Assembly: GCA_964455625.1 (NCBI GenBank)
Contig: CAYVXZ010000001.1
Location: 8,150-72,149, forward strand
From: an uncultured Planctomycetales bacterium
Lineage (GTDB): Bacteria; Planctomycetota; SBBH01
Reading direction: 5' to 3'
DNA: 64,000 bases
The notes under the pieces are model-generated. The model had not been told where the DNA came from, made no database searches, and saw only the letters and a list, made by a program, of their open reading frames with translations. Within the stretch, counting starts at the first letter, position 1, and every line of letters begins with the position of its first letter. Positions 12,188-43,062 of the stretch are shown here, in pieces. Made by a program: the position numbers and the translations under genes.

Positions 12188-15285
<3,098 letters not shown>

Positions 15286-16571: not shown

Positions 16572-16582
16572 GGCTGGAAGGA

Positions 16583-16813: not shown

Positions 16814-16828
16814 ATATGAAAGCTAGAA

Positions 16829-17416: not shown

Positions 17417-17425
17417 CATGATCGG

Positions 17426-18513: not shown

Positions 18514-18518
18514 GCCTG

Positions 18519-19831: not shown

Positions 19832-19928
19832 CCGTCAAGCGGACCCCTCCCCCTCCGAAAGGGTATCGGGCAACTTCCGATAAGGTTGGTGCCTATCTTG
19901 AAAGAACTGTTATTTTGTCCTGCAGGAC

Positions 19929-21158: not shown

Positions 21159-21883
21159 TGAGCGCCACGTCAACCATAGAGTGGACCAACGCAACCTGGA
21201 ATCCGGTCACAGGTTGCACAAAGATCAGTCCTGGGTGCAAGCATTGCTACGCTGAAGTTTTTGCGGAGCGTTGGCGAGGGATCTCCGGGCATCATTTCGA
21301 GCAGGGATTTGACCTCCGGCTTTGGTTTAAGCGGCTAGAGCTCCCGCTTACCTGGAAAACGCCGCGAACCATTTTCGTGAACAGCATGAGCGACCTCCTT
21401 CATGAGAAGGTGCCCACTTCATTTATTCGGAGGGTATTCCAGACCATGGAGCAGGCATCGTGGCACACGTTCCAGGTTCTGACCAAGCGCTCGGAAAGGC
21501 TGGCAGAACTGGCACCAACCCTAGACTGGCCATCCAATGTGTGGATGGGGGTGTCCATTGAAAGCGCTGATTATCTGTGGCGAGCCGATCACCTTCGTGA
21601 AGTGCCTGCTGCGGTGAGATTCTTGTCCTTGGAGCCTTTGCTGGGACCTCTGGGAGTCATAGATCTGACAGACATTGATTGGGTCATCGTGGGCGGGGAG
21701 AGCGGTCCTGGTGCTAGACCTATGGAGGCCGACTGGGTTAGGGACATCAGCAAGCAGTGCCGGAGAGAAAATGTCTCATTCTTCTTTAAGCAGTGGGGCG
21801 GCGTACAAAAGAAGCGGACAGGAAGGACTCTCGATGGGCGTACGTGGGATGGCATGCCAAAGGGTCATCTTCTGGGAGTCTGA
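21158..21883 (+). CDS. phage Gp37/Gp68 family (DUF5131) three-Cys-motif protein
   Basis: N-terminal 'IEWTNATWNPVTGCTKISPGCKHCYAE' carries the C-x6-C-x2-C motif typical of the family. ATG at 21158 overlaps the upstream stop. Confidence 0.7.
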   Translation: MSATSTIEWTNATWNPVTGCTKISPGCKHCYAEVFAERWRGISGHHFEQGFDLRLWFKRLELPLTWKTPRTIFVNSMSDLLHEKVPTSFIRRVFQTMEQASWHTFQVLTKRSERLAELAPTLDWPSNVWMGVSIESADYLWRADHLREVPAAVRFLSLEPLLGPLGVIDLTDIDWVIVGGESGPGARPMEADWVRDISKQCRRENVSFFFKQWGGVQKKRTGRTLDGRTWDGMPKGHLLGV

Positions 21884-21973
21884 CCGGACCCCCCGGAACT
21901 AAACCATTCTTTTCGAAATCCAGCAAAACGTCTGAATGTCCACATCTCCCTTGGGAGCTGATATGGGGAACGT

Positions 21974-23116: not shown

Positions 23117-23311
23117 CCAGAAATTCTCCTGGTAGCGTTAGAGCGTTGATTCCGGATTGCGGAAGTGCCTAAGCCCCAGATGGACTGTCATGGGATCATG
23201 CTAGTCGATTCTTAATCTGTTGCCCACCGAGCCGGACAGCGCTGTGTCAACCAGTACCAGAGGACGTCGGGGCCTGTTCCTCAAGGGCACGTGAAGCCCT
23301 CTTCAATTCCA

Positions 23312-23327
23312 GGTTGCACGGTTGCAC
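23312..23327. promoter_or_regulatory. tandem direct repeat GGTTGCAC-GGTTGCAC (candidate antitoxin operator)
   Basis: A perfect 8-bp tandem repeat about 80 bp upstream of the antitoxin start. Confidence 0.35.
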
Positions 23328-23370
23328 ACCGTCCCGTAGAGGTAGGCCCTCCCCCCTCCCCTGACGAAAA

Positions 23371-23399
23371 TTGGCTGGGGCGTTTCCCCATGATAGAAT
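23371..23399 (+). promoter_or_regulatory. sigma70-like promoter (-35 TTGGCT, 17-nt spacer, -10 TAGAAT) for the TA operon; likely leaderless transcript
   Basis: The -10 hexamer ends 7 nt before the ATG at 23406 and no Shine-Dalgarno sequence is visible. Confidence 0.4.
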
Positions 23400-23405
23400 C
23401 CTGCC

Positions 23406-23642
23406 ATGACTACTGCGACGATTGCCCAGGAGGCCGTGCGGCTCATCAAGCATCTGCCTCGTGAGAAGGCGCAGGCTCTTCTGGAATACGCCCGGTACTT
23501 GGTCGAAAGCACCGGCGAGGAGGTCTGGGAGCACAGGCTGAGTGACCCCAGGCATGCCAAGAAGCTGAAGGACTTGGGCGAAAAGGCGCGGAAAGAGTTC
23601 CGCGACGGGAAGACCCGGCCGCTCGACTCCGACAAGATGTGA
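23406..23642 (+). CDS. type II antitoxin (78 aa)
   Basis: A small acidic/basic protein whose stop overlaps the toxin start (ATGA). This is a typical TA pair organisation. Confidence 0.6.
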   Translation: MTTATIAQEAVRLIKHLPREKAQALLEYARYLVESTGEEVWEHRLSDPRHAKKLKDLGEKARKEFRDGKTRPLDSDKM

Positions 23643-23902
23643 TCTCACACGCCTCGGGTTCCTTCCGGAGGCAGCTCCAGACCCTCCAAAAAGATGTTCA
23701 GAAGAGGGCTCGATCAGCCTTCAGGTTGTTCAAGCGGAATCCCCATCACGCCTCCCTGAAGTTCAAGCGCCTCTCGGGCTTGACGGACTACTGGTCTGCC
23801 CGGATCGGCCCTCACTACCGCGCCGTAGCAGTCCGTGAAGGTTCGACCCTGATCTGGTTCTGGATCGGCAGCCACGCCGACTTCGACCGGGATTTCAGGT
23901 AG
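23639..23902 (+). CDS. RelE/ParE-family toxin (type II TA, mRNA interferase-like)
   Basis: 87 aa. 'LKFKRLSG...YWSARIGPHYRAVAV...LIWFWIGSHADF' matches the RelE/ParE plasmid-stabilisation toxin core. Confidence 0.7.
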   Translation: MISHASGSFRRQLQTLQKDVQKRARSAFRLFKRNPHHASLKFKRLSGLTDYWSARIGPHYRAVAVREGSTLIWFWIGSHADFDRDFR

Positions 23903-23914
23903 GGGGGTCGTCTA

Positions 23915-23932
23915 CAAGCCGGCCTACATGCC
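23915..23932. repeat. 18-bp direct repeat 'caagccggcctacatgcc', copy 2
   Basis: Identical to 3069-3086. Confidence 0.6.
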
Positions 23933-24000
23933 AGGCTTTCTGGAAGCTCCGGCAGGCTTTCTCTCCCTCGGGAAACGGCCGGTCTCGGGTCGGAACTGCA

Positions 24001-24044
24001 CCAGCTTGGAAGGCTGGAGCTCTGCCATTGAGCTACACCCGCGA
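24001..24044. repeat. 44-bp direct repeat, copy 2 (5' fragment of tRNA-Gly; putative att site)
   Basis: Perfect identity to 2934-2977. The flanks diverge. Confidence 0.85.
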
Positions 24045-24123
24045 AGACGGCGGGAAGTCTATCACGCCTGCCGCGGAACAGAATCCCCACGGACGCGGAA
24101 TCAGCCGATAGAATAAGGAACTG

Positions 24124-28341: not shown

Positions 28342-30033
28342 ATGTCCAGGACGTCCATCCTTTCCCCGCGGCTCCTCGTGGCCGTCCTCATGCTCCTTTT
28401 CACGGGCGCCGGGCTCGTCGGAAGCGGCTGGGGGATCCCCGGACGCGACCGTGCGGAGATCGTGGGCGCGACGCCCGGCCCCTTTCTCGACAGCGTGAAG
28501 GCGCGCTGCGGAGAGGATCTCGAGACCCGCCGGGAAGGAGGGTTCGGCCGCGCGATCCCGGTCGCCCCGGACGACCACGCCGGGATCCTCGCCCGGATCT
28601 GCCGCCGCTTCCTCCTCTACACCCATCACCCGGACGAGGGGCGGGTCTTCTGGGCGTTCTCGAACATCCGGCCGTCGGACCTCGCGTTCAACCCGGGGAC
28701 CTTCGCCTACGGAGGGCTTTTCTTCTATTCCCTGGGAGCCTGGTACTGGATCGGGGCCAAGATCGGACTCTGCGCGCTCGTCCCGGACGCGGGGTTCTAT
28801 CTCGACCATCCAGAGGAGATGGGCCGTCTCGTCCAGCTGGGGCGGATCGGAATCATGCTGGCCGGGGCGCTCGCCATCCCGGTCCTCTTCCGGATCGGAA
28901 GCCTTCTCTGGGGCGCCCGGGGAGGAATGCTTCTCGCGCTCCTGTGGGCGGCCCATCCCCTGTGCGCCATCGGCGGGCGCGAGCTGAAGCCGTACCTTCC
29001 CGCCGCGTTCCTGGTGTCGCTTTCCCTCCTCCACGCCCTGCGCGCCGTGCGCGGGGGCGGCACCCGGAGCGCGCTCGCGGGTGCGGCCTTCGCGGGGCTC
29101 GCGGCCGGCGCCTCCCCGGCCAATTACCCGGTCGCGATCCTCCCGATCCTCGCGCTCTGGACGGCCCCCGCGCCCCGGACGAGGCGCGTCACCGGAACGG
29201 TCCTCGCCGGACTCGTCTCGGGTCTTGTCTTCCTCCTCTGCAACCCCTTTCTCCTCGTGTCGCTCGAGACGTTCCTCAAGGAGGCGGCCGCCATCGATGC
29301 CGTCTGCGGGACATTTCCCGCGGATCTGCCGTCCTATGGCGCGCTCCTCTTCCGGTCCATCCCGCTCGGGCTGCACCCTTTCCTTGTCCCGTTCCTCGCG
29401 CTCGGCGCATGGATGGCGTCCAGGCGGCCCGGAGGGCTCCTTTGCCCGGCGGCGCTCGGGTTCCTGCTTCTCCACTTCGCCGTCTTCACGGGAGAGCAGG
29501 TGCGCTACATGGCCATGGTCCGTTTCCTCTTTCCCTACCTGCCGATCGCGCTGGTGCTCGTCGTGGAAGGGATGTTCGCGGTCGGGCACCGGTTTCCCCG
29601 CGCGGGACGCGTCGCGACCGCGACGGCGGCCCTCGCTCTTGCCGCGACCGCGGCGACCCTCGTCGGACTCCACCGGGAAGACGCGGGCCCCTCCTCGACG
29701 CGTCTTGCGGCCGGTGCCTGGATCCGGGAGAACGTCCCGCCGGGAACGATCGAGGTCCCGACCGGCGTGGCCCCCTGGGACTTCCCGCCGCTCCCGTTTC
29801 CGGCCTACGCCGTCGGCGACATGACCTGGGGAACTCCGCATCACATCGCGACCACCGGCCGGGAATACCTCGTCCGCGTCGAAGCGAACGAGGCGTTCTC
29901 GCCGGTGGACCCCGCGTTCGAGCAGGTCCGGGAATGGGATGTCCGCTCCGGCCGGCTCCTCTCCCCCCTCCTCCCCCACCACCTGTTCTGGGCGCAATCA
30001 ACCGTGCGCCTCTACCGGCGGAAGGGCCCGTGA
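28342..30033 (+). CDS. polytopic membrane protein, GT-C fold (ArnT/PMT-like glycosyltransferase family 39/83)
   Basis: About 12 hydrophobic segments. An N-terminal loop with a D/E-rich motif. Glycosyltransferase gene neighbourhood. Confidence 0.55.
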   Translation: MSRTSILSPRLLVAVLMLLFTGAGLVGSGWGIPGRDRAEIVGATPGPFLDSVKARCGEDLETRREGGFGRAIPVAPDDHAGILARICRRFLLYTHHPDEGRVFWAFSNIRPSDLAFNPGTFAYGGLFFYSLGAWYWIGAKIGLCALVPDAGFYLDHPEEMGRLVQLGRIGIMLAGALAIPVLFRIGSLLWGARGGMLLALLWAAHPLCAIGGRELKPYLPAAFLVSLSLLHALRAVRGGGTRSALAGAAFAGLAAGASPANYPVAILPILALWTAPAPRTRRVTGTVLAGLVSGLVFLLCNPFLLVSLETFLKEAAAIDAVCGTFPADLPSYGALLFRSIPLGLHPFLVPFLALGAWMASRRPGGLLCPAALGFLLLHFAVFTGEQVRYMAMVRFLFPYLPIALVLVVEGMFAVGHRFPRAGRVATATAALALAATAATLVGLHREDAGPSSTRLAAGAWIRENVPPGTIEVPTGVAPWDFPPLPFPAYAVGDMTWGTPHHIATTGREYLVRVEANEAFSPVDPAFEQVREWDVRSGRLLSPLLPHHLFWAQSTVRLYRRKGP

Positions 30034-31172
30034 GCGCCCGTCCCCGGCTCCTCTTCCTGTCGCGCGCCGTGAACCCCCACGGCGGGATCCCGCGCGCGGC
30101 GTTCGAGACCCTGAAGGCGCTCGAGGGATCCGCGGATCTCGCCCTCGCGGCGATCGATTGCGACGCGGAGGCGGCGGGTTTCTCGTCCTGGATCCCCGTC
30201 CCGAAAGGGCGCGCGCGTTCGCATTTCGGGGAACTCGCGGGGTTTCTCCGCCGGACGCGCGCCGTCCCGCGGGACGGATTCGGCCTCTCGATCGGCGTCC
30301 TGGGAGAATGCCTCGATTCCGACGTCGCCTGGGCGCACTTCTGCTATCCGGCCTGGCGCGACGTGGCGCTCCCGGTCACCCCGTCCGGGCGCGCCCGCTG
30401 GGCGCGGCGCCTCAATCCCGCAGGGCTTCTCCAATGGCACGCGGAGCGCCGCCACGCGGCGCGCGCCCGCGCCGTCGTCGCCGTCTCGGAAGGGCTCCGG
30501 CAGGAACTGGTCCGGCATTACGGCCTGGCGCCCGGATCCGTCCGCGTGATCGAGAACGGCGTCGACGCGGGGGCGTTCACGCCCGCGGGGCGCGCGGTGG
30601 ACCGAGCGGCGCTCGCCCGGAAGTTCGGCCTGCCCGGGGACGCGCCCTGGATCCTTTTCGTCGCGAGCTATGACCTCGCCTGGAAGGGGCTCGCGCCCGC
30701 GATGGAAGGGCTTGCCCGGGCGGGCGGGACGGCGCGGCTTCTCGTCGCCGGCGGGCAGGACCCGCTCGGGCATTTCCGGCGCCTGGCGGAGACGCTCGGG
30801 ATCGCCGCGCGCGTTCATTGGCTGGGTCGCCAGGACGGCATGCAGGCGCTCTACCGGTCCTGCGACGTCTACCTGGCGCCTTCCGCCTGGGAGGCGATGT
30901 CGCTCGCGGCCCTCGAGGCGGCGGCGTCCGCCCTGCCGATCCTCGCAACACGCGTGAGCGGGATGACGGAGATCCTGGCGGACGGCGAGAACGGCTTTTT
31001 CGTGGCGCGCGACGCGGACGATATCGGGCGGCGCGTCGCGGAGCTGGCCGGGTCGCCGGAGCTGCGCGCCCGGATGGGGGCGGCGTCGCGGGAGCGCGCG
31101 GCGCGGTTCACCTGGAAGGCCGCCGCCGGGAAATGGCTCGCGCTCGCCGAAGAGCTTGCCGCGACCCGCTGA
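30030..31172 (+). CDS. glycosyltransferase family 4
   Basis: GTG at 30030 overlaps the upstream stop. The C-terminal GT4 motif is 'EAMSLAALEAAASALPILATRVSGMTEILADGENGF'. The track ORF 28302-31172 is a frame run-on. Confidence 0.75.
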   Translation: MSARPRLLFLSRAVNPHGGIPRAAFETLKALEGSADLALAAIDCDAEAAGFSSWIPVPKGRARSHFGELAGFLRRTRAVPRDGFGLSIGVLGECLDSDVAWAHFCYPAWRDVALPVTPSGRARWARRLNPAGLLQWHAERRHAARARAVVAVSEGLRQELVRHYGLAPGSVRVIENGVDAGAFTPAGRAVDRAALARKFGLPGDAPWILFVASYDLAWKGLAPAMEGLARAGGTARLLVAGGQDPLGHFRRLAETLGIAARVHWLGRQDGMQALYRSCDVYLAPSAWEAMSLAALEAAASALPILATRVSGMTEILADGENGFFVARDADDIGRRVAELAGSPELRARMGAASRERAARFTWKAAAGKWLALAEELAATR

Positions 31173-31176
31173 CCGT

Positions 31177-32319
31177 CTACTTGCCGGCCGCGAGGCGGAT
31201 GTCCCCGCTCGCCGTCCGGAGCGTCACCCGGGGACCGCCGCCGCCGACCGCGCCGGAAAGCCCCTGTCCGGAAACCCCTCCCGGCCCGACGGCGACGGAA
31301 AAGTCCGTCTCGATCCGGCCGAACCCGGTCGCCGCGTCGACCGTCAGGGCCGCGCCGGCCGGGAGCCCCAGCGTCACGTCGCCGAAGGAAGTGGCAAGCG
31401 CCCAGGGGACCTCGGGGGCCCGCGCGGCGACAACCCGGACCGATCCGGAGCCGGACCGGAGAGACAGCGTTCCGAACGCCCCTTCCGCCTCGATATCGCC
31501 GGAACCGGTCTCCCCCTCAAGACTTCCCGTGATCCCGCGCGCGACAAGACCCCCCGAGGCGAGCCGCACCGTCACGGCCCCGGAGACCTCCTTGAGGCCG
31601 CATTTTCCGGACCCGCCCGCCAGGTCGATGCGGGCGGCGGCGACCCCCTCGAGCGCGATCCGGCCCGACGCGGCGTTCGCCGAGACCCGCTCCGCCCTGA
31701 CCGAGACGATCCCGATCTCCCCGAAGGCGGTCGCGGCGGAAACCTCTTTCCCCTCGATGTTCCCGATCCGGACCTCCCCCGAACCGGACTGGAGCGAGAG
31801 ATCCCCGCGGATCCCGTCGCACCGGATGTCGCCGAAGCCGCTCCGGACCGCCACCGAGACGCCCGCGGGGACCCGGACCGTCCAGTCGATCCGCTCGCGG
31901 ACGTGATACGCCTTTCCCTTCTCCAGGGGGGCCGGGTATTCCGCCAGGATCCGGACCCCGTTCTCGCATCGTTCAACGACGACGCGCGTCGCGGACGCGC
32001 GGGCGTCCGCTTCCGCGCGGGTCTTCCCGGAAGCGGTGATCGCGGCGGAAAGCGAGGCTGTCCCGTCGGTCGAGGCCGCGACGACAATGTCGCCGGCGCG
32101 CCCCTCGAGAAACAGCGTCTCGCCGGCGGCGACCGTCACGGGGACTTCCTCGTTCCGGGACGCCTTCCGGAAGGATCCGGAGGCCTCCTCGTCCTCCCCG
32201 CCGCTCCCAGACTTCCACTCGAACGTCATCCCCCCCGCCTGGCACCCGGCCAGGACCGGAAGGAGAAGCACGACGCCGGAGATCCGTTTGACGCGCATGG
32301 TTTCCCCCTTACCGTTCAA
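31177..32319 (-). CDS. DUF4097-like beta-repeat lipoprotein (putative adhesin family)
   Basis: Signal plus lipobox 'VLAGCQ'. Repeated G/S/V-rich beta strands with 'GSG(D/E)(V/I)' repeats. Confidence 0.5.
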   Translation of the reverse strand: MNGKGETMRVKRISGVVLLLPVLAGCQAGGMTFEWKSGSGGEDEEASGSFRKASRNEEVPVTVAAGETLFLEGRAGDIVVAASTDGTASLSAAITASGKTRAEADARASATRVVVERCENGVRILAEYPAPLEKGKAYHVRERIDWTVRVPAGVSVAVRSGFGDIRCDGIRGDLSLQSGSGEVRIGNIEGKEVSAATAFGEIGIVSVRAERVSANAASGRIALEGVAAARIDLAGGSGKCGLKEVSGAVTVRLASGGLVARGITGSLEGETGSGDIEAEGAFGTLSLRSGSGSVRVVAARAPEVPWALATSFGDVTLGLPAGAALTVDAATGFGRIETDFSVAVGPGGVSGQGLSGAVGGGGPRVTLRTASGDIRLAAGK

Positions 32320-33490
32320 GCCGGCCGCGCCCGGACGCCGCCGCGGCCGCCACCTTGTGGTGGAACCAGTGTGGGCCGGCCTCGGCCTTCGGGGAGAACC
32401 GCCCCGGCGTCCCGCCGGAGGCGGCCATCCCCTGCAGGACCTGCGCCATCGCGTCCACGTCCTCGTCGTCCACCTGACGCGAGAGCCAGAGATCCTCGCG
32501 GCGCGCGTATTTCTGCGGATCGAGGACCCAGTGATACCACCGGAACAGGGTCCGCGCGGGATCCCCGGGGACCGGCTCGTAGACGTTCACCGAGAGCCCC
32601 CACGGGTAGAAATTCAGGGTCAGGTTCGGAAAGACGAACCACCAGAGGGCGAAGACGCGCCGCTCCGGATGCGCCGCGTCCCGGAAACGCGCCGGGAGGA
32701 TCTCCGGATCGAAGCCGTGCGCGGGATCCCGGGCGAACGCCCACTGGAGGGCGCAGTCCCCGAAAAGCTCCGTCCGGTAGGTCTCCATCAGAAGGGCGTC
32801 CGCGAGCCCTCCGGGTTTCCGGTGGATGTACGGGATGTGCAGGCTGTCCATGTAGTTCCAGGCGTGCTGCTTCCAGTTGCCGGAAAGGACCCGGCTTTCT
32901 CCTTCCACGGGGACGCGTTTCAGGCGGTCGAGGGGAAACCGTTCCAGGGAACCGGCCACCGGGGAAAACGCCTTCGCGAACGGCCGGTCCGGCTTTCCCG
33001 CGGCGGCGAAGAAAGAATCCCCCCACTCGGCGACCGGACAGGCCCGCAGGTGGTCCTCCGGCCCCGGAAAACCCGGAATCCCCTCGAACCCCGCCTGCGC
33101 GAGGAAGCGCCCGGCGCAGTCGAACTGCCGCCCGTGCTGGGGACAGGTGACGCGCCGGTCCCGCTCCGGTCCCCGCACGAGGGGGTGCCAGGCATGCGTG
33201 CAGGCGTTCGGAAAGAGGCGCAGCGTCCCGTCCCAGTCCCGCTGGAGGAAACAGGGGCGCCCCGCGAGCGTCACCGGGACGCGCGACCCGCGCCGCCGCA
33301 CCAGATCCGCCAGGCTCCGGGGGTCGGCGCGAAGCTCCGCCGCCTCCCGCTGGGGGACGAAAAGCCAAGACTTCGCGAAGACCGTCTCCAGCTCGCGCGC
33401 CAGGAACGCCGGATCGAGAAAGGCGGAAGGCGGAAGGATGCGCGCCCTCGCGATGTCGGTTCCCCTTCCTTTCCGCGACTTGGCCATCCC
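32309..33490 (-). CDS. Rieske [2Fe-2S] domain non-haem oxygenase alpha-subunit-like protein
   Basis: Rieske motif 'CTHAWHPL...CPQHGRQF' (CxH...CxxH). The C-terminal part resembles a ring-hydroxylating catalytic domain. Start Met taken at 'MAKSRKG'. Confidence 0.7.
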   Translation of the reverse strand, partial: GMAKSRKGRGTDIARARILPPSAFLDPAFLARELETVFAKSWLFVPQREAAELRADPRSLADLVRRRGSRVPVTLAGRPCFLQRDWDGTLRLFPNACTHAWHPLVRGPERDRRVTCPQHGRQFDCAGRFLAQAGFEGIPGFPGPEDHLRACPVAEWGDSFFAAAGKPDRPFAKAFSPVAGSLERFPLDRLKRVPVEGESRVLSGNWKQHAWNYMDSLHIPYIHRKPGGLADALLMETYRTELFGDCALQWAFARDPAHGFDPEILPARFRDAAHPERRVFALWWFVFPNLTLNFYPWGLSVNVYEPVPGDPARTLFRWYHWVLDPQKYARREDLWLSRQVDDEDVDAMAQVLQGMAASGGTPGRFSPKAEAGPHWFHHKVAAAAASGRGRLER

Positions 33491-33559
33491 GCCATCGTCC
33501 CCCAAGCGTCCTCCGCCATCAACCCCGGAAACGTTTGCGGAAGGCGGTCCTCGCCGGGA

Positions 33560-34532
33560 GGATGCCGGGATGGGACGCGCCGTCGCGCTGGATGTCGCGG
33601 GAATCGGGTCCATGGTCGTCGACCGGATCTTCAGGGCGCCGCGCCTCATCGGCCCCGAGGAAAAAATCCTGCTGGCGCGTCACACGGACGGCTCGGTCGT
33701 CCGGAAGCTCCACGGCGGCGTCACGCTGAACCATCTCGCCTGGGCGCGGGTGACGGGCGCCCGGACGGGCGTCTTCGGAAGCCTCCCGGACGACGCCGAC
33801 GGACGGTTCCTCCGGGCCGGCATGCGGTCGCTCGGTATCGCCGCGCACCTCTCGCCGAAAGGGTCCACCACCGCCGCCTCCCTTGTCTTCGTGGCCGACG
33901 ACGGCGCGCGGTGCATCTACATGGACCGGGGCGCGACGGGCGGGACCCGCCCGGCGGATATCCGCGCCCACCGGGCGTTCATCCGGCGCGCGCGTTTCGT
34001 CTCGACCGAGATCTCGCAGTTGCCTCTCGACACCGTCGCCGCGGTCCTCGCGCTCGCGCGCGAGGCCGCGGGAACGACGGTCCTTGATGTGGACATTCCT
34101 CCGCAGGATGCCGTCAGGACCCTGGGGAGCCGCCGGGATCTCGAACGCGCGCTCGCGCTTGCCGACATCCTGAAGCCGTCCCGGGCGGCGGCCCGGGAAC
34201 TCGCCGGCGGCGCCCCTCCCCTCCTGGCCGCGCGGCGGCTCCGCGCGCGATACGGATCCCGCGCCGTCGCCATCACGGACGGCGAACGGGGGTGCGCGAT
34301 CGACGCCGAGGGGTTTTCGGGGGCGCTCCCCGCCTTCCGCGTGAAGGCGGTCGATACCACCGGATGCGGGGATGCCTTTCTGGGGGGGCTTCTTGCGGCG
34401 CGCGCCCGGGGCCTCTCCTGGCCCGAGGCGGCGCGCCTCGCGAACGCCTGTGGCGCCGCCTGCGCCCTGCAGACGGGCGCCTTTCCCGCTCCCGGCACCC
34501 GCCGGACGGTCGAACGCCTCCTCGCGTACTGA
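33560..34532 (+). CDS. PfkB-family carbohydrate kinase
   Basis: 'DTTGCGDAFLGG' is the PfkB signature 2. N-terminal 'VAGIGSMVVD'. ATG at 33560. The upstream part of the track ORF 32877-34532 is antisense run-on. Confidence 0.8.
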
Positions 34533-34584
34533 CCCGCCTAGCGACCAGGCAAGGTTGCCGATATCATTCCCGCGCGCGCGTCGC

Positions 34585-34657
34585 GCTACCGTAGCTCAGC
34601 CGGCAGAGCACGTCCTTGGTAAGGACGAGGTCAAGGGTTCGAATCCCTTCGGTAGCT
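34585..34657 (+). tRNA. tRNA-Thr (anticodon GGU)
   Basis: Cloverleaf fold. Acceptor stem GCTACCG/CGGTAGC. Anticodon stem-loop CGTCC-TTGGTAA-GGACG. T-arm AAGGGTTCGAATCCCTT. Confidence 0.85.
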
Positions 34658-34747
34658 CCGTTTCGCATATCGGGGGCCGTCTTCGGGAGCGGCCATCAGC
34701 GCCACCAGCGCAACCGGGAAAAGCGTTATCCGTTATCGAAGAGGGCT

Positions 34748-35332
34748 TCAGTGCCCCTCGCCGGCGGGCGGGGGATGGTCCTTTTCCTTGTCCTTCTCTT
34801 CCTTGCCGTGGTCCTTCCCGTCCTTGTCCTTCTCTTTTTCCTTTTCCTTGTCCTTGCGCGCCTTCTCCTTGTCGGCCTTGGCCTTGGCGCGCGCGGCGGC
34901 GGCGTTCTCCTCGACCTGCTTGAGGAGCTTGCGGCGGTCGAGCCCCAGGAGCTGGTCGATCTTCGCGACCAGCGTCTCGCGCCGGTAGGGTTTCTGCAGC
35001 ACCTCGGCGATCCCGATCGACTTGGCCTCCTCCACCTCGCTCGGGCCGAACTTGGCGCTCATCATGAGGAAGATCGGCCGCCCCTCCTTGGGAGGCGCGG
35101 CCTTCCGGACCCACTCGATCCCGGTCATGCCGGGCATCGAAAGGTCGGTCATCACGAGATCGAAGGGGCCGTTCTGGGAAAGCTGCTGGAGCGCCTCCTC
35201 GCCGGAGCCGGCCTCCTCGACCTCGAAACCGGCCCCCTCGAGGACGATCCGGACCCCCTTGCGGAGCATCACGAGGTCGTCCACCACGAGGAGCCGCGCA
35301 AGCGCCTTCCCCATCTCCTGGCGGAGTCCCAT
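34748..35332 (-). CDS. single-domain response regulator (CheY-like receiver) with K/E/D-rich low-complexity C-terminal tail
   Basis: 'LLVVDD', phospho-acceptor 'LVMTDLSMPGMTG' and 'LMMSAKF'. The tail is 'KAKADKEKARKDKEKEKEKDKDGKDHGKEEKDKEKD', encoded by imperfect tccttg/tccttc repeats. Confidence 0.8.
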   Translation of the reverse strand: MGLRQEMGKALARLLVVDDLVMLRKGVRIVLEGAGFEVEEAGSGEEALQQLSQNGPFDLVMTDLSMPGMTGIEWVRKAAPPKEGRPIFLMMSAKFGPSEVEEAKSIGIAEVLQKPYRRETLVAKIDQLLGLDRRKLLKQVEENAAAARAKAKADKEKARKDKEKEKEKDKDGKDHGKEEKDKEKDHPPPAGEGH

Positions 35333-35402
35333 GCGGAGGATTGTCCGCCCGTGGCGGCAGGCCCCACAAGGGGAATCTGGACCTGACGCTCGCGAGCAGG
35401 AA

Positions 35403-35432
35403 AAAAAGAAGGGCCCGCCTTCCGGCGGGCCC
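35403..35432 (-). terminator. rho-independent terminator downstream of 5S rRNA
   Basis: Minus strand reads GGGCCCGCC-GGAA-GGCGGGCCC followed by UUCUUUUUUU. Confidence 0.7.
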
Positions 35433-35444
35433 TCTCGAGAATAT

Positions 35445-35556
35445 CCCCGGCGACGACCTACTTTCGCAGTTGACCCACTATCATCGGCCCGCAGGGCTTA
35501 ACGACCGTGTTCGGAATGGGAACGGGTGTGGCCCCTACGGTATGGTCGCCGGGAAA
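35445..35556 (-). rRNA. rrf: 5S ribosomal RNA (orphan copy, no adjacent 23S/16S)
   Basis: The reverse complement is 'UCCCGGCGACCAUACCGUAGGGGCCACACCCGUUCCCAUUCCGAACACGGUCGUUAAGCCCUGCGGGCCGAUGAUAGUGGGUCAACUGCGAAAGUAGGUCGUCGCCGGGG'. It aligns to bacterial 5S along its length (…CCCAU.CCGAAC…, …GCCGAUG.UAGUG…, …GCGA.AGUAGG…). The ends are complementary and form helix I. Confidence 0.85.
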
Positions 35557-35605
35557 CTTTGGGTTCCCTATGTGGCGGTGAGTATGTCAGGGGACCGCCC
35601 GGCTG

Positions 35606-35848
35606 TCAACGGTCTTCCCCGGGAGGCCTCGGGGGCGGGATCACCTCGACCTCGACCCCCTTGTGCGTGTAGCGGGGGGCGCCGCCCGGCCGGGAAGGGC
35701 GCGCGAACAGGCGTCTCACGCGCCAGGCCAGGTACAGGAAAACCGCGACGCCGAACCCCGCCGCCAGGGCCGCGAGCCCCAGAGCGGCGAGTCCCGCCAG
35801 CGCCAGGACGGCAAGCACCGCCCCCGCGAGGCGCGCGAGAAAATCCAT
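35606..35848 (-). CDS. small hydrophobic protein (80 aa), doubtful
   Basis: An Ala/Leu-rich TM-like ORF between the 5S and the STAS gene. It could be spurious. Confidence 0.2.
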   Translation of the reverse strand: MDFLARLAGAVLAVLALAGLAALGLAALAAGFGVAVFLYLAWRVRRLFARPSRPGGAPRYTHKGVEVEVIPPPRPPGEDR

Positions 35849-35879
35849 CCCGTCAGGGTATCACACGCCAGTCGGCGGG

Positions 35880-36893
35880 TCAGGCGGAGGGCTTTTCCGT
35901 CTCCAGGTGCGCGAAGAGCGCGGCCTGGCGGCGGATCTTCTCGTCGGCGGCCAGGAGATCCGCCCGGAGCGACCTGAAGAGGTTCGCCATCTCCGGGTCC
36001 ATCTTCACCATGGCCGACAGGATCAGGTGCGAGAGGGGCGGCTCGTCGGGGGACGTGCCCTCGGCAGGAAGCGAGACCCCGATCGTGAGGAACGCCTCCT
36101 CGACCCCGCGGCAGATGGTCGAGAGCGAGTCGGCATGGACCCGGGCCTGCTCCAGGGACGCCCGGATCCGCTTCTGGACCTCCCGCATCGGCGCCAGGGC
36201 GTCCTGCGTGCGCTGGCGGATCGTCTCCTGCTCGTCGGCGAGCTTCCGGTTCTCCTCGCGCATCGCCTCCACGCGGGCGCGCAGGTCGATGTAGAGCGAC
36301 TGCGCCTTTTCCCGGTCGCCGGCGGCCGACTGGGCGTCCTCCTTCGCGGCGGCGAGATCCGCCTCCATGAGCGCGAGGTCCCGCTTCAGGCGCTCCACCT
36401 CGCCGGCGAGGTCCGCCCCGCCCGACAGGGCCGCCGGGGAGGGGCGCGGCGGAGGCTCCCCGCCGGGGGCGGGCGTCTCCGGCGCCGCGGCTTCCGGGGC
36501 GGGGGCCGCCGGCGCCAGACGCGGCTTGGGGGGGGCCGCGGGAGGCTCCTCCCGGACCGCCTCGGCCGCGGGCCGGCCCGACAGGATCGAGTCGGGCTCC
36601 AGCCCCCCCCGCGAGAAGGTCGTCGCCACGGCGGAGCCGACGTTCACGAGGCGGAACGACCGCCCCTCCGCCTCGATGAACTCCCGCAGGCGCACCAGCG
36701 CCGCCACCGCCATGGGCGAGATGCGGGTCAGCTTCGTGCAATCCACCGTGACGTCGCGCGGGGAATCGGCGAATGCCTGCCGGATCAGGCGGAGCTTCTC
36801 GCCATAGACCGTCCGGTCGAGCTCCCCCTCGAGAACGGCGGAAATCGCGTCCATCGTGTCCCTGGAACCTTCCGTCTGTCGCGTGGCCTCCAT
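35880..36893 (-). CDS. STAS-domain (anti-sigma-factor-antagonist-like) protein with Pro-rich linker and C-terminal coiled coil
   Basis: The N-terminus ('...VTVDCTKLTRISPMAVAALVRLREFIEAEGRSFRLVNV') resembles SpoIIAA/STAS. The linker is Pro/Ala-rich. The C-terminal part is heptad-rich. Confidence 0.6.
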   Translation of the reverse strand: MEATRQTEGSRDTMDAISAVLEGELDRTVYGEKLRLIRQAFADSPRDVTVDCTKLTRISPMAVAALVRLREFIEAEGRSFRLVNVGSAVATTFSRGGLEPDSILSGRPAAEAVREEPPAAPPKPRLAPAAPAPEAAAPETPAPGGEPPPRPSPAALSGGADLAGEVERLKRDLALMEADLAAAKEDAQSAAGDREKAQSLYIDLRARVEAMREENRKLADEQETIRQRTQDALAPMREVQKRIRASLEQARVHADSLSTICRGVEEAFLTIGVSLPAEGTSPDEPPLSHLILSAMVKMDPEMANLFRSLRADLLAADEKIRRQAALFAHLETEKPSA

Positions 36894-37021
36894 CGACGCG
36901 TGTACCTTACCCCGCCCGCGGAGGCCCGCAACGCCGCGGCACGGCGCCCGCCGGAGCGGCCGGGCCCGGCGTGCACGAATTGCATGGTCTTCCGGGCGGC
37001 TCCGCGCCGGTAGAATCCGGC

Positions 37022-37609
37022 GTGCTCAACTGGCCCAACCGCATCACGATCGCGCGGATCCTGCTGACGCCGGTCCTCGTGATGCTCGCGATCCGCGCCG
37101 ACGACGGGCCGCAGTTCCGCGCCTGGACGCTCGCCCTCTTCGTGATCCTGGCCCTCACCGACGCCGTGGACGGGTTCCTCGCGCGCACGCTGAAGCAGAA
37201 GACGGAGCTCGGGACGTTCCTCGATCCGCTGGCGGACAAGGTGCTTCTCGTGACAGCGACGGTGCTTCTCGTCTGCCCGCTCTGGCCGGACGCGGCGGCG
37301 GGGGCCCGGACGCGCATCCTCCCGGCCTCGATCGCGGTCATCGTCATCAGCCGGGAGGTGCTCCTCGCGCTCGGGACGCTCCTCATTTTCGTCCTGGCGG
37401 GGAACGTCGTCATCCGCCCGTCGGTGCTGGGGAAGCTCACCACGCTCGTCCAGATCGCGATGATCGCCGGAACGCTCGCCGGGGTCCGCGAGCCGGTCCG
37501 GACCCCCCTTCTCTGGGGGACGGCCCTCATCACGATCGCCTCGTTCGTCGGCTACGCCTACGACGGATGCCGGCAGCTCGCGCGGATCGGCGACGACAAG
37601 AAGCCCTAG
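37022..37609 (+). CDS. pgsA: CDP-diacylglycerol--glycerol-3-phosphate 3-phosphatidyltransferase
   Basis: GTG at 37022. CDP-alcohol phosphatidyltransferase motif 'DAVDGFLAR...G..LDPLADK'. Confidence 0.8.
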   Translation: MLNWPNRITIARILLTPVLVMLAIRADDGPQFRAWTLALFVILALTDAVDGFLARTLKQKTELGTFLDPLADKVLLVTATVLLVCPLWPDAAAGARTRILPASIAVIVISREVLLALGTLLIFVLAGNVVIRPSVLGKLTTLVQIAMIAGTLAGVREPVRTPLLWGTALITIASFVGYAYDGCRQLARIGDDKKP

Positions 37610-37639
37610 GTATTTTTTCCATCCGGCGGGAGCGTTTGC

Positions 37640-37775
37640 GGGGGCCTGATGAAGCCGGGCCGGTCAGGAGGTGCGAGGCCCGGCGGAATCGGAGAGACCG
37701 AGCGGCACGGATGCCGCGAGGGAACGTCCCCCGCCAAATGCGACCGCCGAAAGGGCAAGCGAGCGAGCGTTTCGG
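37640..37775. repeat. ~135-nt structured repeat, copy A (about 85% identical to 54735-54870)
   Basis: It starts 'gggggcctgatgaagccgggccggtcagga' and contains the inverted repeat GCCGGGCC/GGCCCGGC. Confidence 0.7.
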
Positions 37776-37799
37776 GAGTCTGAACACAAGAAAAGAGGT

Positions 37800-39092
37800 T
37801 CATCGGGGTTCGACCACCGCCATCGCGGAAAGGTCCGCACGGAAATGGGCCGCCAGGCGCGCCGACACGTCCGCGGGAGTCATCCGCCCCAGGATCCGGT
37901 GCCACGCGAAGGGATCGACCCCCGCGAAATGGCAGGAGGCCGCCGACCGGGCGACCGCCGACGGGGAATGGAACGCCTTGAGGGCCGCCCCCATCGACTT
38001 CGCGCGGACCCGCTCGAAGTCCGCAGGCGCGATCCCCTCCAGCCGCGCGCGCGCGACCTCGTCCAGGACCGCCCGGCGCAGGCGCGCCGGGTCGCGCGTG
38101 CGCCCCCCGACGACGCTGTAGCCGAAGTCGTCACCGGCCTGGTGGCCGAACCCGAAATCGTCGTCGACGAGCCCCTCACCGAAGGCGCGCTCCCGGAAGC
38201 GCGAGGCCGGGCCGAAGAGGAGGTCCCCGGCGAGCGCCGTCGCGATCCGCTGGCGCACCAGCGCGTCCCCCGCGAGCCCCGTCTCCGTCTCCTTGAACGC
38301 CACGAGCGCCTTGGGCCGGGGGACGTCCATCCGGCGCCGCGAGAGCCGACCCGCCACGCGCGCGGGCTCGCGGACGGCACGCCGGACAGGGCACGTGCCG
38401 GGCGCGGGACGGTCGAACGCGGCGTCGACGGCGGCCAAGACCGCCTGCAGCGACACGTCCCCGGCCGCGGCCACGACCATGTTGTCCGGACGGTAGAAGG
38501 CCCGGTAGGCGGCGCGCAGGTCCTCCGCGCGCGTCGCCCGGACGCTCGCCACGGTCCCGGCGATGTCGTCCCGGACGGGATGCCGCGCGTAAAGGAGGCG
38601 CTGGAGGTCCTGGACGCAGGCGCTGTCCGGGTCGTCCTGGTACATCCGGATCTCCTGGGCGATGATCCCCTTCTCCTTCCGGACGGTCTCGTCGGTGAAC
38701 GCGGGGCGGCGGACGAACCCCAGGAGCTCGTCGAGGGCTTTCCCGAACCGGTCCACGCACGAGACGTGGTAGGCGGTCTCCCCGTAGTCGGTGTACGCGT
38801 TGGCGGAGGCACCCAACGCCGCGAAGCGCTCCATGGCGTTCACGGACTCCCCCTCGAACAGCTGGTGCTCCAGGAAATGCGCCGCCCCGGACGGGATGGG
38901 CCGCCACCGGTTCCCCTCCCGGAACGCCCGGTCCTTCGCCCCGAACCGGACGGCGACCAGGGCGAACTTCTGGACGGTCCCCGGCACCGGCGCGCACCGG
39001 ACCGCGGGCCGGCCGCTCCGGCGCGCGGCGAGGACCGCCTCCCCGGTCAGGGGGTCGCGCATCTCCCGGACGGTCCACCCGCGCCGCGTCAT
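37800..39092 (-). CDS. M16-family zinc peptidase (pitrilysin/insulinase-like), active-site type
   Basis: Inverzincin motif 'GAAHFLEHQLFEG' (HxxEH). ATG at 39092 overlaps the stop of the upstream M16 gene (ATGA). Confidence 0.8.
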   Translation of the reverse strand: MTRRGWTVREMRDPLTGEAVLAARRSGRPAVRCAPVPGTVQKFALVAVRFGAKDRAFREGNRWRPIPSGAAHFLEHQLFEGESVNAMERFAALGASANAYTDYGETAYHVSCVDRFGKALDELLGFVRRPAFTDETVRKEKGIIAQEIRMYQDDPDSACVQDLQRLLYARHPVRDDIAGTVASVRATRAEDLRAAYRAFYRPDNMVVAAAGDVSLQAVLAAVDAAFDRPAPGTCPVRRAVREPARVAGRLSRRRMDVPRPKALVAFKETETGLAGDALVRQRIATALAGDLLFGPASRFRERAFGEGLVDDDFGFGHQAGDDFGYSVVGGRTRDPARLRRAVLDEVARARLEGIAPADFERVRAKSMGAALKAFHSPSAVARSAASCHFAGVDPFAWHRILGRMTPADVSARLAAHFRADLSAMAVVEPR

Positions 39093-40393
39093 GCCGCTCC
39101 CCGGCCTGGCCCGGCGGTGAAGACCGCCTTGAGCGCGAGGCCCCGCGCCGCGCGGGCGACATCGGCGGGGCGCAGGACCGCGAGATCCGCGAGCGCCGCG
39201 TGCCGCGTGAAGGTCCGCCCCAGGAGCCCTTCCTCGTAGTGGGCGTCGATCTGCGCGGCGCGCAGGTCCGCGAGGCGCCGCAGCCCCTGGCGCAGGCAGG
39301 CGCGGGTCTTGGCGAACTCGTCCGCCGTGAAGCGCCCCCGGCGGACGTTGTCGATCTCCTCCCGGATGAGGTCGAGCGCCCGCCGCGTGTTCGCCGGCTC
39401 CACCCCCGCGTCGACGAAGACCCATCCCGTGGCGCGGTCGGCGAAGCACCCCACCGAGTAGGCGAGGCTCTTCTCCTCCCGCACCGTCCGGAAGAGCCGC
39501 GAGTGGGAGAATCCCCCCAGAAGCGCGGCCGCGAACCCCAGCGCGTCGGCGGCGCGGCCCGCGCCCGCCGGGTCGATGCCGCTCGCGAACCCCAGGCAGA
39601 GCCGGGCCTGTCGGGCGTCGAGCCGCTCCGCGGCGCGGCGGACGGCCCCCCCGGTCCGGAACCGCGTCGCGGAACGGCCGTCGGCGGCCTCGCGTCGCGG
39701 GAAGGCGAGAGCCGCGGCCGCCCGCGCGAGAACCGCGTCGGGCGGCACCGGCCCCATCGCGTAGAGGTCGAAGGACGACTCCGCGAGCCAGCGGCGCCAG
39801 CGCCGGAAGAGCCCCGCGGGCCGGATCCGCCGGATGCCGGCGGCCGAGCCGTACGGATGCCGCCCGGCCGGGTCCGCCCCGGCCAGCATCCGCCGGCATT
39901 TCTCGTAGGCGTAGCGCTCCTTCTGCTCGATCTGGGCGGCGAGCAGCATCGCGAGGTTTTCCTTCTCGCGCGCCACGACGTCGGCCCGGAACGCCGCGCC
40001 GTCGGTCAGGGGATCGGCCAGGATCTCGCGCAGGAGGAAAAACGCCTCCCCCAGGAAATCCCTCCTCAAGGAGGAGGGCAGGAACCGTTCGCAGGGGACC
40101 TCCATCTCCCAGGCCGCCACCTGGTGGCGGCCGAACCGGTGGACCTCGACGTCGAGCGTCGTCCCGCACAGTTCTTCGAGGCGCCGCCGGATCGCGCGCT
40201 CGGTGGGGAGACTCCGCGTCCCCTGCTTCAGGACGAACGGGATCAGGGCGGTCGGCGCGGGATCACTCCCCAGGGGAGACCGCAGGAAGGCCGAGATCCA
40301 GGTCGACTTGAACCGCGGCGCCTCCCGGACGAAAAGCCGCGTTCCGTTCGGCAGGACCGCGCGACGGAAATCGCCCGAGCGCTCCCACCTCAT
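39089..40393 (-). CDS. M16-family peptidase, non-catalytic-type subunit
   Basis: M16 fold similarity without HxxEH. It pairs with the downstream active subunit. Confidence 0.65.
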   Translation of the reverse strand: MRWERSGDFRRAVLPNGTRLFVREAPRFKSTWISAFLRSPLGSDPAPTALIPFVLKQGTRSLPTERAIRRRLEELCGTTLDVEVHRFGRHQVAAWEMEVPCERFLPSSLRRDFLGEAFFLLREILADPLTDGAAFRADVVAREKENLAMLLAAQIEQKERYAYEKCRRMLAGADPAGRHPYGSAAGIRRIRPAGLFRRWRRWLAESSFDLYAMGPVPPDAVLARAAAALAFPRREAADGRSATRFRTGGAVRRAAERLDARQARLCLGFASGIDPAGAGRAADALGFAAALLGGFSHSRLFRTVREEKSLAYSVGCFADRATGWVFVDAGVEPANTRRALDLIREEIDNVRRGRFTADEFAKTRACLRQGLRRLADLRAAQIDAHYEEGLLGRTFTRHAALADLAVLRPADVARAARGLALKAVFTAGPGRGAA

Positions 40394-42111
40394 CGGCGGA
40401 GGAAGCGCTTCTCGAGATCCTTGAGCGTGAGGGAGAACGACGTCGGCCGGCCGTGCTCGCAGCAGCCGGGAAACTCCGCCGTGACGCGCCGCGAGAGGAG
40501 GGAGCGCACCGCCTCCGCCGAGAGCGCGTCGCCGGCGCGCACCGCCGCCTGGCAGGCGACGATCCGCGTGATCTTCTCCCGCAGGTGCCCGGGGTCGCCG
40601 GCCTTTTCCTCCCCCCAGCGGTCAAGAAGCACCCGGAAGAACTCCCGCAGGCGCTTTCCGGCCAGGAGGGACGGCGTCGCGTGGACCGCGAGCGCCCCCT
40701 CGCCGAAGAGCCCCACGTCGAACCCCAGGGCCGCGAGAAGCGTCTTCGCCTCCAGGATCTGCGCCGCCTCGACCGGCGTGAACTCGAGGACCTCCGGAAT
40801 CAGGAGCTGCTGGCTTTCCACCGCCGCGCGCTCGCTCTTCGACTTCAGCTCGTCGTAGAGGATCCGTTCGTGGAGCGCGTGCTGGTCGTAGATCTCGATC
40901 CCGTGCGGCATCTCGACCACGAGGAACGTCCCGTGGACCTGCAGGAACCGGATCTCCGGCTCCGGCATGAGCGCGGGATCGACCTGGACCTGGCGCTCGA
41001 ACCGGGACGGGGACGTTTCCGGCGCCCCCTCGGCCGGGGGGACGGGTCGCTCCGCGCCGAACGCCGCGTGCGACTCGAACGCCCCGTGCCGCGCCGGTTC
41101 CGGCTCCGGGTAGGGGTCGCGCGCGGCGGACCCGGCGAGCGCGCGCTTCACCGCCGAGCGCACGAACGGATGCAGGCGCGACGCGTCCCGGAAGCGCACC
41201 TCGGTCTTCATCGGATGCACGTTCACGTCCACCGCGTCCGGCGGAACGGTCAGGAAGAGGAAGGCGGCCGGGTACTTCCCGCGCGGCACCAGCGTCTCGT
41301 ACGCCTGGCGGATCGCCGCCGAGACGACCCGGTCGCGCACGAAGCGGCCGTTCACGAACAGCATCTGGTGCCTCGCCGTCGCGTGGTGCACCGAGGGTTT
41401 CGAGACCGCCCCCGTCACGCCGAACGCCCCCTCGGCGTGGTCCACGGAAACAAGCTCGGAAGCGACCTGCGGGCCGAAAAGGAACCGGATCCGCTCGAGG
41501 ACGGACGCGGCCGGAAACGCGCGCACCGCCTGGTGGGCGTCCACCGAGAGGAAGAAGGCGACCTGGGGATAAGCCAAAGCAAAGCGATGGATCCACTCCT
41601 GGACGTGCGCCGCCTCGGTGGCGTTCGACTTCAGGAACTTCCGCCGCGCCGGCACGTTATGGAAGAGGTCCTTCACCTCGACGCGCGTCCCGGACGGGAC
41701 CCCCGCCGCGCGGACCTTCCCCGCCTCGCCGCCCGCCACCTCGATCAGGTGCCCCGCGCCGGAGGCCGGGGCGCTCGAAAGGGTCAGGTTCGAGACCGAT
41801 CCGATCGCCGCCAGGGCCTCCCCCCGGAACCCGAACGTCGAGACGCGAAAGAGGTCCTCGACGTCGGCGATCTTGCTCGTCGCGTGGCTCTGGACGGCCA
41901 TGGCGAGGTCCGCGGCGTCCATCCCGCGGCCGTCGTCGATGACGCGGATGGTCTTGCGGCCTCCCTCCTCGATTTCCACCGTGATTCGGCTGGCGCCCGC
42001 GTCGAGGGCGTTCTCCACGAGCTCCTTCACCACCGACGCCGGCCGCTCCACCACCTCGCCGGCCGCGATCTTTTCCACCGTGGTCCGGTCGAGCAGTCTG
42101 ATCTTCGGCAT
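40390..42111 (-). CDS. mutL: DNA mismatch repair protein MutL
   Basis: The N-terminus 'MPKIRLLDRTTVEKIAAGEVVERPASVVKELVENALDAGA' is the GHKL ATPase. The C-terminal dimerisation domain is present. Confidence 0.9.
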   Translation of the reverse strand: MPKIRLLDRTTVEKIAAGEVVERPASVVKELVENALDAGASRITVEIEEGGRKTIRVIDDGRGMDAADLAMAVQSHATSKIADVEDLFRVSTFGFRGEALAAIGSVSNLTLSSAPASGAGHLIEVAGGEAGKVRAAGVPSGTRVEVKDLFHNVPARRKFLKSNATEAAHVQEWIHRFALAYPQVAFFLSVDAHQAVRAFPAASVLERIRFLFGPQVASELVSVDHAEGAFGVTGAVSKPSVHHATARHQMLFVNGRFVRDRVVSAAIRQAYETLVPRGKYPAAFLFLTVPPDAVDVNVHPMKTEVRFRDASRLHPFVRSAVKRALAGSAARDPYPEPEPARHGAFESHAAFGAERPVPPAEGAPETSPSRFERQVQVDPALMPEPEIRFLQVHGTFLVVEMPHGIEIYDQHALHERILYDELKSKSERAAVESQQLLIPEVLEFTPVEAAQILEAKTLLAALGFDVGLFGEGALAVHATPSLLAGKRLREFFRVLLDRWGEEKAGDPGHLREKITRIVACQAAVRAGDALSAEAVRSLLSRRVTAEFPGCCEHGRPTSFSLTLKDLEKRFLRR

Positions 42112-42684: not shown

Positions 42685-43062
42685 TTACCCGCTGGCGATG
42701 AACTTCCCGAGCATTCGGGTCACATGGTCACAGGCATCCCAGAGGGCCCGGAAGCGTGGCTCCGCGAGGAGGCCCAGGCGATGCCCGACTTCGAGGCAGG
42801 CGGCGAGCTCGTGCGTCGAGCCGATCGCGATCTCGAAGAACCGCCGGCGCTCGGCCCGCGAGGGACGACCGAGCCCTTCGGCGATGTTGAGCGGGACCGA
42901 CCCGGCCGCCCGGCGGGCCTGATCGGCAAGCCAGCCGTAGCCGCGCGGCAGATTCCGGGTCCAGATCGCGGCCTCCGTCACCAAGTCCACCGATTTCCGA
43001 TATGCCCGACATCCGTGCAGATCCATTCGCGTCTCCTTTCTGGCGCCGAGGCGGCGCCTCAC
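42685..43062 (-). CDS. four-helix-bundle protein (23S rRNA intervening-sequence protein family)
   Basis: 'AIWTRNLPRGYGWLADQARRAAGSVPLNIAEGLGRPSRAERRRFFEIAIGS' is the hallmark of the family. It is a paralog of 54390-54743. Confidence 0.8.
   Translation of the reverse strand: MRRRLGARKETRMDLHGCRAYRKSVDLVTEAAIWTRNLPRGYGWLADQARRAAGSVPLNIAEGLGRPSRAERRRFFEIAIGSTHELAACLEVGHRLGLLAEPRFRALWDACDHVTRMLGKFIASG

Follow-up and report, generated by a model that had tools for sequence, protein, structure and literature searches.

A solitary 5S rRNA gene with its own predicted promoter and terminator at a conserved locus of a small uncultured clade

The 64-kb stretch of DNA analyzed here, which we refer to as the window, carries a complete 5S rRNA gene that stands apart from any 16S or 23S rRNA gene. 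We interpret it as a functional 5S gene that forms a small transcription unit of its own, uncoupled from 23S, and that is most likely the normal 5S arrangement of its clade and probably the only 5S gene there; we put the probability of this reading at about 0.8. A detached 5S gene is an uncommon arrangement that is already documented in other bacteria. The features of the locus, listed in the direction in which the 5S gene is read, are as follows.

35880-36893, minus strand: gene for a STAS-domain protein (Pfam STAS and STAS_2) with a long C-terminal extension
35606-35848, minus strand: conserved small hydrophobic open reading frame (ORF) of 80 aa, called by gene callers, between the STAS gene and the 5S gene
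35581-35609, minus strand: predicted sigma-70-type promoter, with -35 TTGACA at 35609-35604, a 17-nt spacer ending in TGA, and -10 CATACT at 35586-35581
35580-35574, minus strand: GC-rich discriminator CACCGCC
35573-35554, minus strand: predicted 20-nt leader, ACATAGGGAACCCAAAGTTT, directly before nt 1 of the 5S gene
35445-35553, minus strand: 5S rRNA gene, 109 nt, RF00001 match, with a helix IV of 4 bp and a 5-nt loop
35398-35444, minus strand: 3' trailer, AUAUUCUC, and predicted intrinsic terminator, with a hairpin at 35434-35409 and T7 at 35407-35401
34748-35332, minus strand: response-regulator gene downstream of the terminator (Pfam Response_reg, E = 2e-20)
34585-34659, plus strand: tRNA-Thr(GGU) gene (ARAGORN; Rfam, 70.6 bits), convergent with the response-regulator gene

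When the 64-kb window was searched with cmscan, the 5S gene scored 83.2 bits against RF00001, for which the gathering score is 38 (E = 3e-16), and it was the sole rRNA match of the Rfam scan. The alignment spanned model positions 1 to 120 without truncation. Helices I, II, III, and V and loops C and E were intact, and helix IV was shortened to about four pairs with a five-base loop. Both the score and the three-way junction with its loops place 35445-35553 in the RF00001 family, and this segment is confirmed as a genuine full-length 5S rRNA. The first-pass annotation had called a clear 5S rRNA on the minus strand and had proposed an Infernal/Rfam scan as the check. The score, which lies well above the gathering threshold and not below it, upholds that call, and the length it had given, about 112 nt, is corrected to 109 nt. 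The 109-nt length is accounted for by the short helix IV. Work by Bomar and colleagues in 1988 reportedly put planctomycete 5S rRNAs at 109 to 111 nt.

No 16S or 23S (SSU or LSU) match was obtained by the Rfam scan anywhere in the 64 kb, and the stretch free of 23S reaches 28.4 kb upstream (5') of the 5S gene and 35.4 kb downstream (3') of it. A permissive Rfam scan of 30000-41000 returned no 16S or 23S fragment even at E <= 1. The claim that the window holds no 23S gene is therefore borne out by zero LSU matches over 64 kb, and a 23S gene that might have gone unrecognized just upstream was absent even at the permissive cutoff. In having no adjacent 23S gene, the locus agrees with solitary 5S units of the Leptospira/Mycoplasma type. 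LSU and SSU matches were also absent from the syntenic loci of three relatives (L004, L009, and L017, described below) in the Rfam scan. Two further matches in the window were below threshold and were taken as chance: sul1 RNA (28.9 bits; threshold, 36.2), inside the STAS coding sequence, and BjrC68 (20.7 bits; threshold, 39), on the terminator hairpin.

The window is ordinary chromosome, with infB, nusA, mutL, and efflux and glycosyltransferase genes. GC skew was negative in 29 of 32 2-kb windows, and the leading strand is therefore probably the minus strand, which carries the 5S gene, infB, nusA, and mutL. The 5S gene had been described as lying between a STAS-protein gene and a response-regulator gene, with a tRNA-Thr gene 800 bp away on the other strand. 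Both flanking genes are where they were said to be, but the conserved 80-aa ORF intervenes before the STAS gene; the tRNA-Thr(GGU) gene is indeed on the plus strand, at a distance of 786 nt from the 5S gene. The database entries for the STAS protein start later (324 aa), and its extension of about 230 aa follows the STAS domain. Among 5.8 billion proteins, this protein forms five clusters at 90% identity, all from this clade, and a STAS-family profile search returned no members past these five. The small ORF has a third-position GC of 0.86 and gave no Pfam or NCBIfam match; the -35 hexamer contains its stop codon.

Relatives of the locus were collected from the contigs of the STAS clusters and later from those of the neighboring M16 peptidase. 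They are listed here with the identity of the two proteins to those of the window.

L005, SRR22388166: STAS identity, 75%; M16 identity, 81%
L006-L008, SRR31738697/699/700: STAS identity, 66%; M16 identity, 69%
L009, SRR6202010: STAS identity, 64%; M16 identity, 70%
L004 (the same as L011), NCBI GCA_005239795.1, Planctomycetales bacterium isolate Bin_31: STAS identity, 49%; M16 identity, 57%
L017/L018, ERR15087766/790: M16 identity, 56%

The gene order mutL, M16, M16, CDP-alcohol transferase, STAS, small ORF, 5S recurs in five further lineages, whose neighboring proteins are 49 to 81% identical to those of the window. The STAS gene is always two genes upstream of the solitary 5S gene (L004, L005, L006, L009, L017, and the window), and the small ORF is called as 75 to 80 aa at the equivalent position in the Logan and NCBI loci. 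On the far side of the 5S gene, the response-regulator gene has the same position in L009, and a cut-off tRNA match occurs there at the same relative position as the tRNA-Thr gene of the window. The Bin_31 relative, L004, carries a heavy-metal P-type ATPase gene (10031-12265, opposite strand) between the 5S terminator and the response-regulator gene. With this insertion in place, the 5S gene is still joined to the STAS side of the locus, and the 5S hairpin of L004 may terminate both convergent genes, 5S and P-type ATPase. The more distant relatives L019-L021, with M16 proteins about 44% identical, showed no synteny and no 5S gene at this position. We propose that the solitary-5S arrangement is ancestral to a small uncultured clade.

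In L004 and L009, Rfam detected a complete 5S gene at the syntenic place, with 80.1 and 81.5 bits, respectively; in L006-L008, L017, and L018, it detected the first 47 to 48 nt of the gene at the contig end. By sequence, L005 and L003, the latter being the upstream contig from the source sample, end 48 and 44 nt into the gene, respectively. Where the full 5S is available, identity to the window is about 97%, with 3 differences in 109 nt from L004 and 3 in 109 from L009, and the substitutions keep pairing, with G.U replaced by G-C in helices I and IV. The flanking proteins of L004 are only 49 to 57% identical to those of the window, and the intergenic DNA has diverged. That the 5S gene has changed at 3 of 109 positions despite such diverged flanks indicates strong purifying selection and fits a working gene. 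This strong conservation of sequence is also what suggests that the RNA is incorporated into the 50S subunit.

These results bear on whether the gene could be a decaying pseudogene, or could encode a 5S-derived regulatory RNA with no ribosomal role. Its 109 nt are fewer than in a typical 5S rRNA, it is detached from an rRNA operon, and ongoing pseudogenization has been proposed for some stand-alone 5S genes that contain insertions (PMC7812874). A degenerate gene would nevertheless have to account for a match of 83 bits along the full model in which every helix, as well as loops C and E, is intact, for a 5S sequence that is conserved while its intergenic flanks diverge, and for the presence of the same helix IV motif in 5S genes of the candidate phyla radiation (CPR) that adjoin 23S. 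We consider this explanation very improbable.

Another possibility to weigh is that two contigs were joined into a chimera at a conserved 5S sequence, rRNA genes being classic sites of misassembly in metagenome-assembled genomes (MAGs). Both flank-5S junctions, however, recur with 0 mismatches in L003 and in L015/L016 (SRR8109493 and SRR8109491), and the same junctions are found in L009 (SRR6202010) and in L004, which is a separate NCBI MAG. An assembly artefact is hardly credible in the face of these recurrences.

The first-pass annotation had named 35557-35700 as the interval in which an upstream promoter should be sought. A consensus scan found a sigma-70-type site there, at 35609-35581, with 10 of 12 matches to consensus and an extended -10 TG; it was the single site in 1.6 kb, compared with 0.1 expected in shuffled sequence. 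The corresponding promoter of L009 matches 11 of 12 consensus positions. When the six lineages were aligned, the -35 TTGAC was invariant, and the -10 read CATAAT, CATACT, or CATGAT in five of the six; the sequences of the 17-nt spacer vary freely. Consensus scans of L004 gave no -10 hexamer and no T-run. The -35 lies just outside the small ORF in L004 and about 140 nt past the end of the ORF in L017, and coding constraint therefore does not account for its conservation. In the alignment the -10 is succeeded by a GC-rich discriminator; GC-rich discriminators, like that at 35580-35574, are typical of stable-RNA promoters. Judging from the distance to the -10, transcription probably starts near A35573. 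The leader motif ACATA.GG.A.C and an A/T-rich tract abutting nt 1 of the 5S gene are kept in all six lineages of the alignment (window, L004, L005, L006, L009, and L017), and the A/U-rich end of the leader seems to recall RNase E-type processing sites.

The predicted promoter also bears on the idea that 5S has no promoter of its own and is made by read-through and processing of the STAS/small-ORF mRNA. Such a route has the layout of the locus in its favor, as the small ORF of the window, which is on the strand of the 5S gene, ends 52 nt before it and no terminator intervenes. We nevertheless judge it improbable. A near-consensus promoter stands at a fixed distance from the 5S gene in six lineages, and it persists in L017, whose small ORF ends farther upstream, as well as in L004, where it is outside the ORF. 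In addition, an RNA required at ribosome-level amounts would be poorly supplied by a promoter of mRNA-level output.

Downstream of the 5S gene, the terminator scan found a hairpin of 11 bp, 9 of them GC pairs, with a GGAA loop and then T7, in agreement with the GC hairpin and U-run terminator noted earlier. The hairpin folds at -26.6 kcal/mol in the window (z = -3.9), -25.9 in L009 (z = -4.9), and -28.2 kcal/mol in L004 (z = -4.7). A hairpin with a four-base loop is present in all three loci that have a 3' flank, although the stem sequence of L004 differs, and the terminator scan was positive in the window and in L009. RNAalifold, run on three sequences of the precursor, predicted five pairs between UUCUC of the trailer and GGGAA of the leader and found no double compensatory pairs. 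This leader-trailer pairing may form a short processing stem. As judged by the scans, the gene is thus predicted to have its own promoter and its own terminator, as solitary 5S units of the Leptospira/Mycoplasma type do. Together, the conserved locus, 5S gene, -35, leader motif, and hairpin indicate that this is a selected, self-contained 5S transcription unit and not a fragment or an assembly artefact.

Under the reading that we favor, RNA polymerase with the housekeeping sigma factor would start at the near-consensus TTGACA-17-CATACT promoter, which is followed by the GC-rich discriminator. The product would be a precursor of about 170 nt, composed of the 20-nt leader, the 109-nt 5S, and a 10-nt trailer and ending at the strong intrinsic terminator. 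The conserved A/U-rich flanks, and possibly the short leader-trailer stem, would guide trimming to the mature 5S, which would then join the 50S subunit. We infer this processing route, together with stringent-type regulation of the 5S unit.

We next consider whether the solitary gene is the sole 5S gene of the lineage or an extra copy, for which the Logan contigs are informative. The graph behind these contigs is a de Bruijn graph of k=31 that contains each 31-mer a single time per accession (PMC12424806). The L009 contig covers the whole 5S gene, from unique flank to unique flank. Since it spans the gene in a graph of unique 31-mers, no other context in that sample shares even one 31-mer with it, which indicates a single 5S of this type in L009. 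The source sample, SRR8109493, behaves differently: the upstream contig L003 ends at nt 44 of the 5S gene, and the downstream contig L015 begins at nt 32, with 0 mismatches to the window. From these two ends it follows that only nt 15-61 of the 5S, a 47-nt core, are common to another sequence, and that nt 14 and 62 are where that sequence departs from the 5S. Had there been a second copy identical to the first but with other flanks, both contigs would have broken off at most 30 nt from the ends of the 5S, and such a copy is therefore excluded in the source sample. The other sequence could be a diverged 23S-linked 5S copy, differing at nt 14 and 62, or the 5S of another organism.

The solitary gene might instead be supernumerary, with a normal 23S-5S pair elsewhere in the genome and the detached gene adding 5S dosage as in Helicobacter pylori and Francisella. 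In the cultured Planctomycetota that have been described, 23S and 5S do remain a pair even where 16S is separate (PMC13514998, PMC7534041). The k=31 contigs of five of the six lineages, moreover, break 44 to 48 nt into the 5S gene, which indicates that those samples also contain another 5S with the same core, and the second source-sample sequence containing nt 15-61 could be a slightly diverged paralogue. On the other hand, the whole 5S gene is crossed in L009, the source sample has no identical second 5S, and the 5S motif occurs at just one locus in the sole genome of the clade among the GTDB representatives. Across deep divergence the lineages have also retained promoter, leader, and terminator, which fits an essential gene better than a spare. 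No 23S-linked 5S copy of the clade was found in the accessible sequence (MAG and metagenome contigs), and two scans of JGI metagenomes with 5S patterns gave no matches. MAGs are often without rRNA operons. On balance we regard a supernumerary copy as rather unlikely.

The L009 read-through and the 47-nt core argue against an identical second copy and favor, rather than prove, a detached 5S gene as the normal arrangement of the lineage. The first-pass annotation had offered two alternatives, an extra copy or a split rRNA operon organization. The evidence leans toward the split organization, by way of the six-lineage locus, the conserved promoter, the single context in L009, and the restriction of common sequence in the source sample to nt 15-61. 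For the narrower statement that the solitary gene is the only 5S of the lineage, the odds are slightly in favor. The most far-reaching form of this reading is a lineage whose only 5S gene is the solitary one, uncoupled from 23S, with a dedicated promoter of the stringent type and a conserved leader-trailer processing signal. Given the 16S-23S unlinking that is common in the Planctomycetota, such a lineage would have its three rRNA genes scattered in the manner of Leptospira, yet in a free-living organism with an unreduced genome. We would give that combination even odds.

Several known systems invite comparison with the detached 5S gene favored here. In Leptospira, all three rRNA genes are separate (PMC6582327). 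The rrf gene of Leptospira interrogans resembles the gene described here in that 5S is a separate transcription unit apart from 23S in a bacterium, free-living or pathogenic, whose genome is of normal size; the difference is that L. interrogans belongs to another phylum, and only the 5S is seen here, with 16S and 23S both outside the window. In Mycoplasma flocculare, M. hominis, and relatives, a 5S gene apart from the 16S-23S operon is the normal arrangement (PMC4357767, PMC4342427). The detachment of 5S from the large rRNA genes is thus shared with Mycoplasma, but Mycoplasma genomes are tiny, AT rich, and reduced, whereas the host here has about 70% GC and a contig of at least 332 kb. Other bacteria have 5S genes outside any rRNA operon, a feature common to them and to this locus. 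Orphan 5S copies occur in H. pylori and Francisella. Desulfallas gibsoniae has a stand-alone 5S gene (PMC7812874). The orphans of these three coexist with operon-linked copies, whereas the evidence here leans against a second copy. Within the Planctomycetota, unlinked rRNA operons have been described in which 16S is apart from a 23S-5S pair (PMC13514998, PMC7534041). The break in those planctomycetes is between 16S and 23S, whereas here it is the 5S itself that is detached. No paper citing the accession or run numbers of the locus was found in the literature.

The shortened helix IV has a counterpart in the 5S rRNAs of the "5Gap1" type, with a short helix IV, described in Parcubacteria/CPR (PMC9297842). 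A scan for the helix IV motif in a genome collection that does not include the source genome returned one genome of the clade and four CPR genomes. The 29-nt motif comprising loop E and helix IV is the same as in the 5S genes of Nealsonbacteria, Saccharibacteria, and Portnoybacteria (L012-L014) save for four loop bases. The loop E/helix IV sequence GATGATAGTGGG....CTGCGAAAGTAGG is nearly identical between the two groups, and the length, 109 to 110 nt, is also alike. The rest of the 5S molecule differs, however, and in L012-L014, the loci with upstream DNA, the CPR 5S gene lies about 50 to 100 nt downstream of 23S. The resemblance in helix IV is probably due to convergence or to retention of a minimal helix IV. 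The 23S gene of the CPR locus L014 contains a group I intron.

Should the lineage have no 5S gene other than the solitary one, it must balance its 5S output against that of 23S and 16S without cotranscription, and it would then be a natural test case for rRNA stoichiometry with a fully broken operon. If the placement in the Planctomycetota holds, a detached 5S would be a further step beyond the 16S-23S unlinking of that phylum. Under the MIMAG standard, the quality of a MAG is judged in part by whether it has 5S, 16S, and 23S. In this respect, the 5S gene here assembles in a 332-kb contig even where 16S and 23S may be lacking. In other respects the gene is an ordinary housekeeping one; its arrangement is unusual but has precedent, and it is mildly relevant to the fragmentation of rRNA operons in an uncultured lineage.

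As regards placement, the label Planctomycetales comes from the submitter's record for the relative L004, and the named M16 homologues lend it weak support: the best of them include "Planctomycetota bacterium" entries, at 40 to 43% identity, beside Firmicutes at 38 to 40%. The Pfam and NCBIfam domain content of the window included nothing lineage diagnostic. The M16 peptidase genes (37803-40393, minus strand) matched the NCBIfam models YfmH, at 320.9 bits (above the cutoff of 250), and YfmF, at 258 bits (below the cutoff of 285). The NCBI name for YfmH/YfmF is "EF-P 5-aminopentanol modification-associated," after a system described in Bacillus, and these matches are unexpected in an organism labeled Planctomycetales.

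Other features of the window lie away from the 5S locus. At 42685-43062 on the minus strand is a gene for a four-helix-bundle "23S rRNA-intervening sequence protein" (PF05635; TIGR02436, 82 bits), with no 23S gene nearby; the name of the PF05635 family reflects merely where its first members were found. At 2904-8500, a tRNA-Gly(UCC) gene (2904-2975, minus strand) is followed by a block of lower GC with a Prim-Pol/AAA_25 primase-helicase gene (4325-6241) and a tyrosine integrase gene (6536-7780), and this block looks like a mobile element integrated beside the tRNA-Gly gene. A second low-GC island extends from about 16000 to 24050, with a GC content of 0.52 to 0.56 compared with about 0.70 elsewhere. 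The two island ORFs that were scanned, 16829-17416 and 19929-21158, had no Pfam match. At the right edge of the island, a weak tRNA-like match (23974-24042, minus strand; 32.8 bits), for which ARAGORN made no call, may be the remnant of an attachment site.
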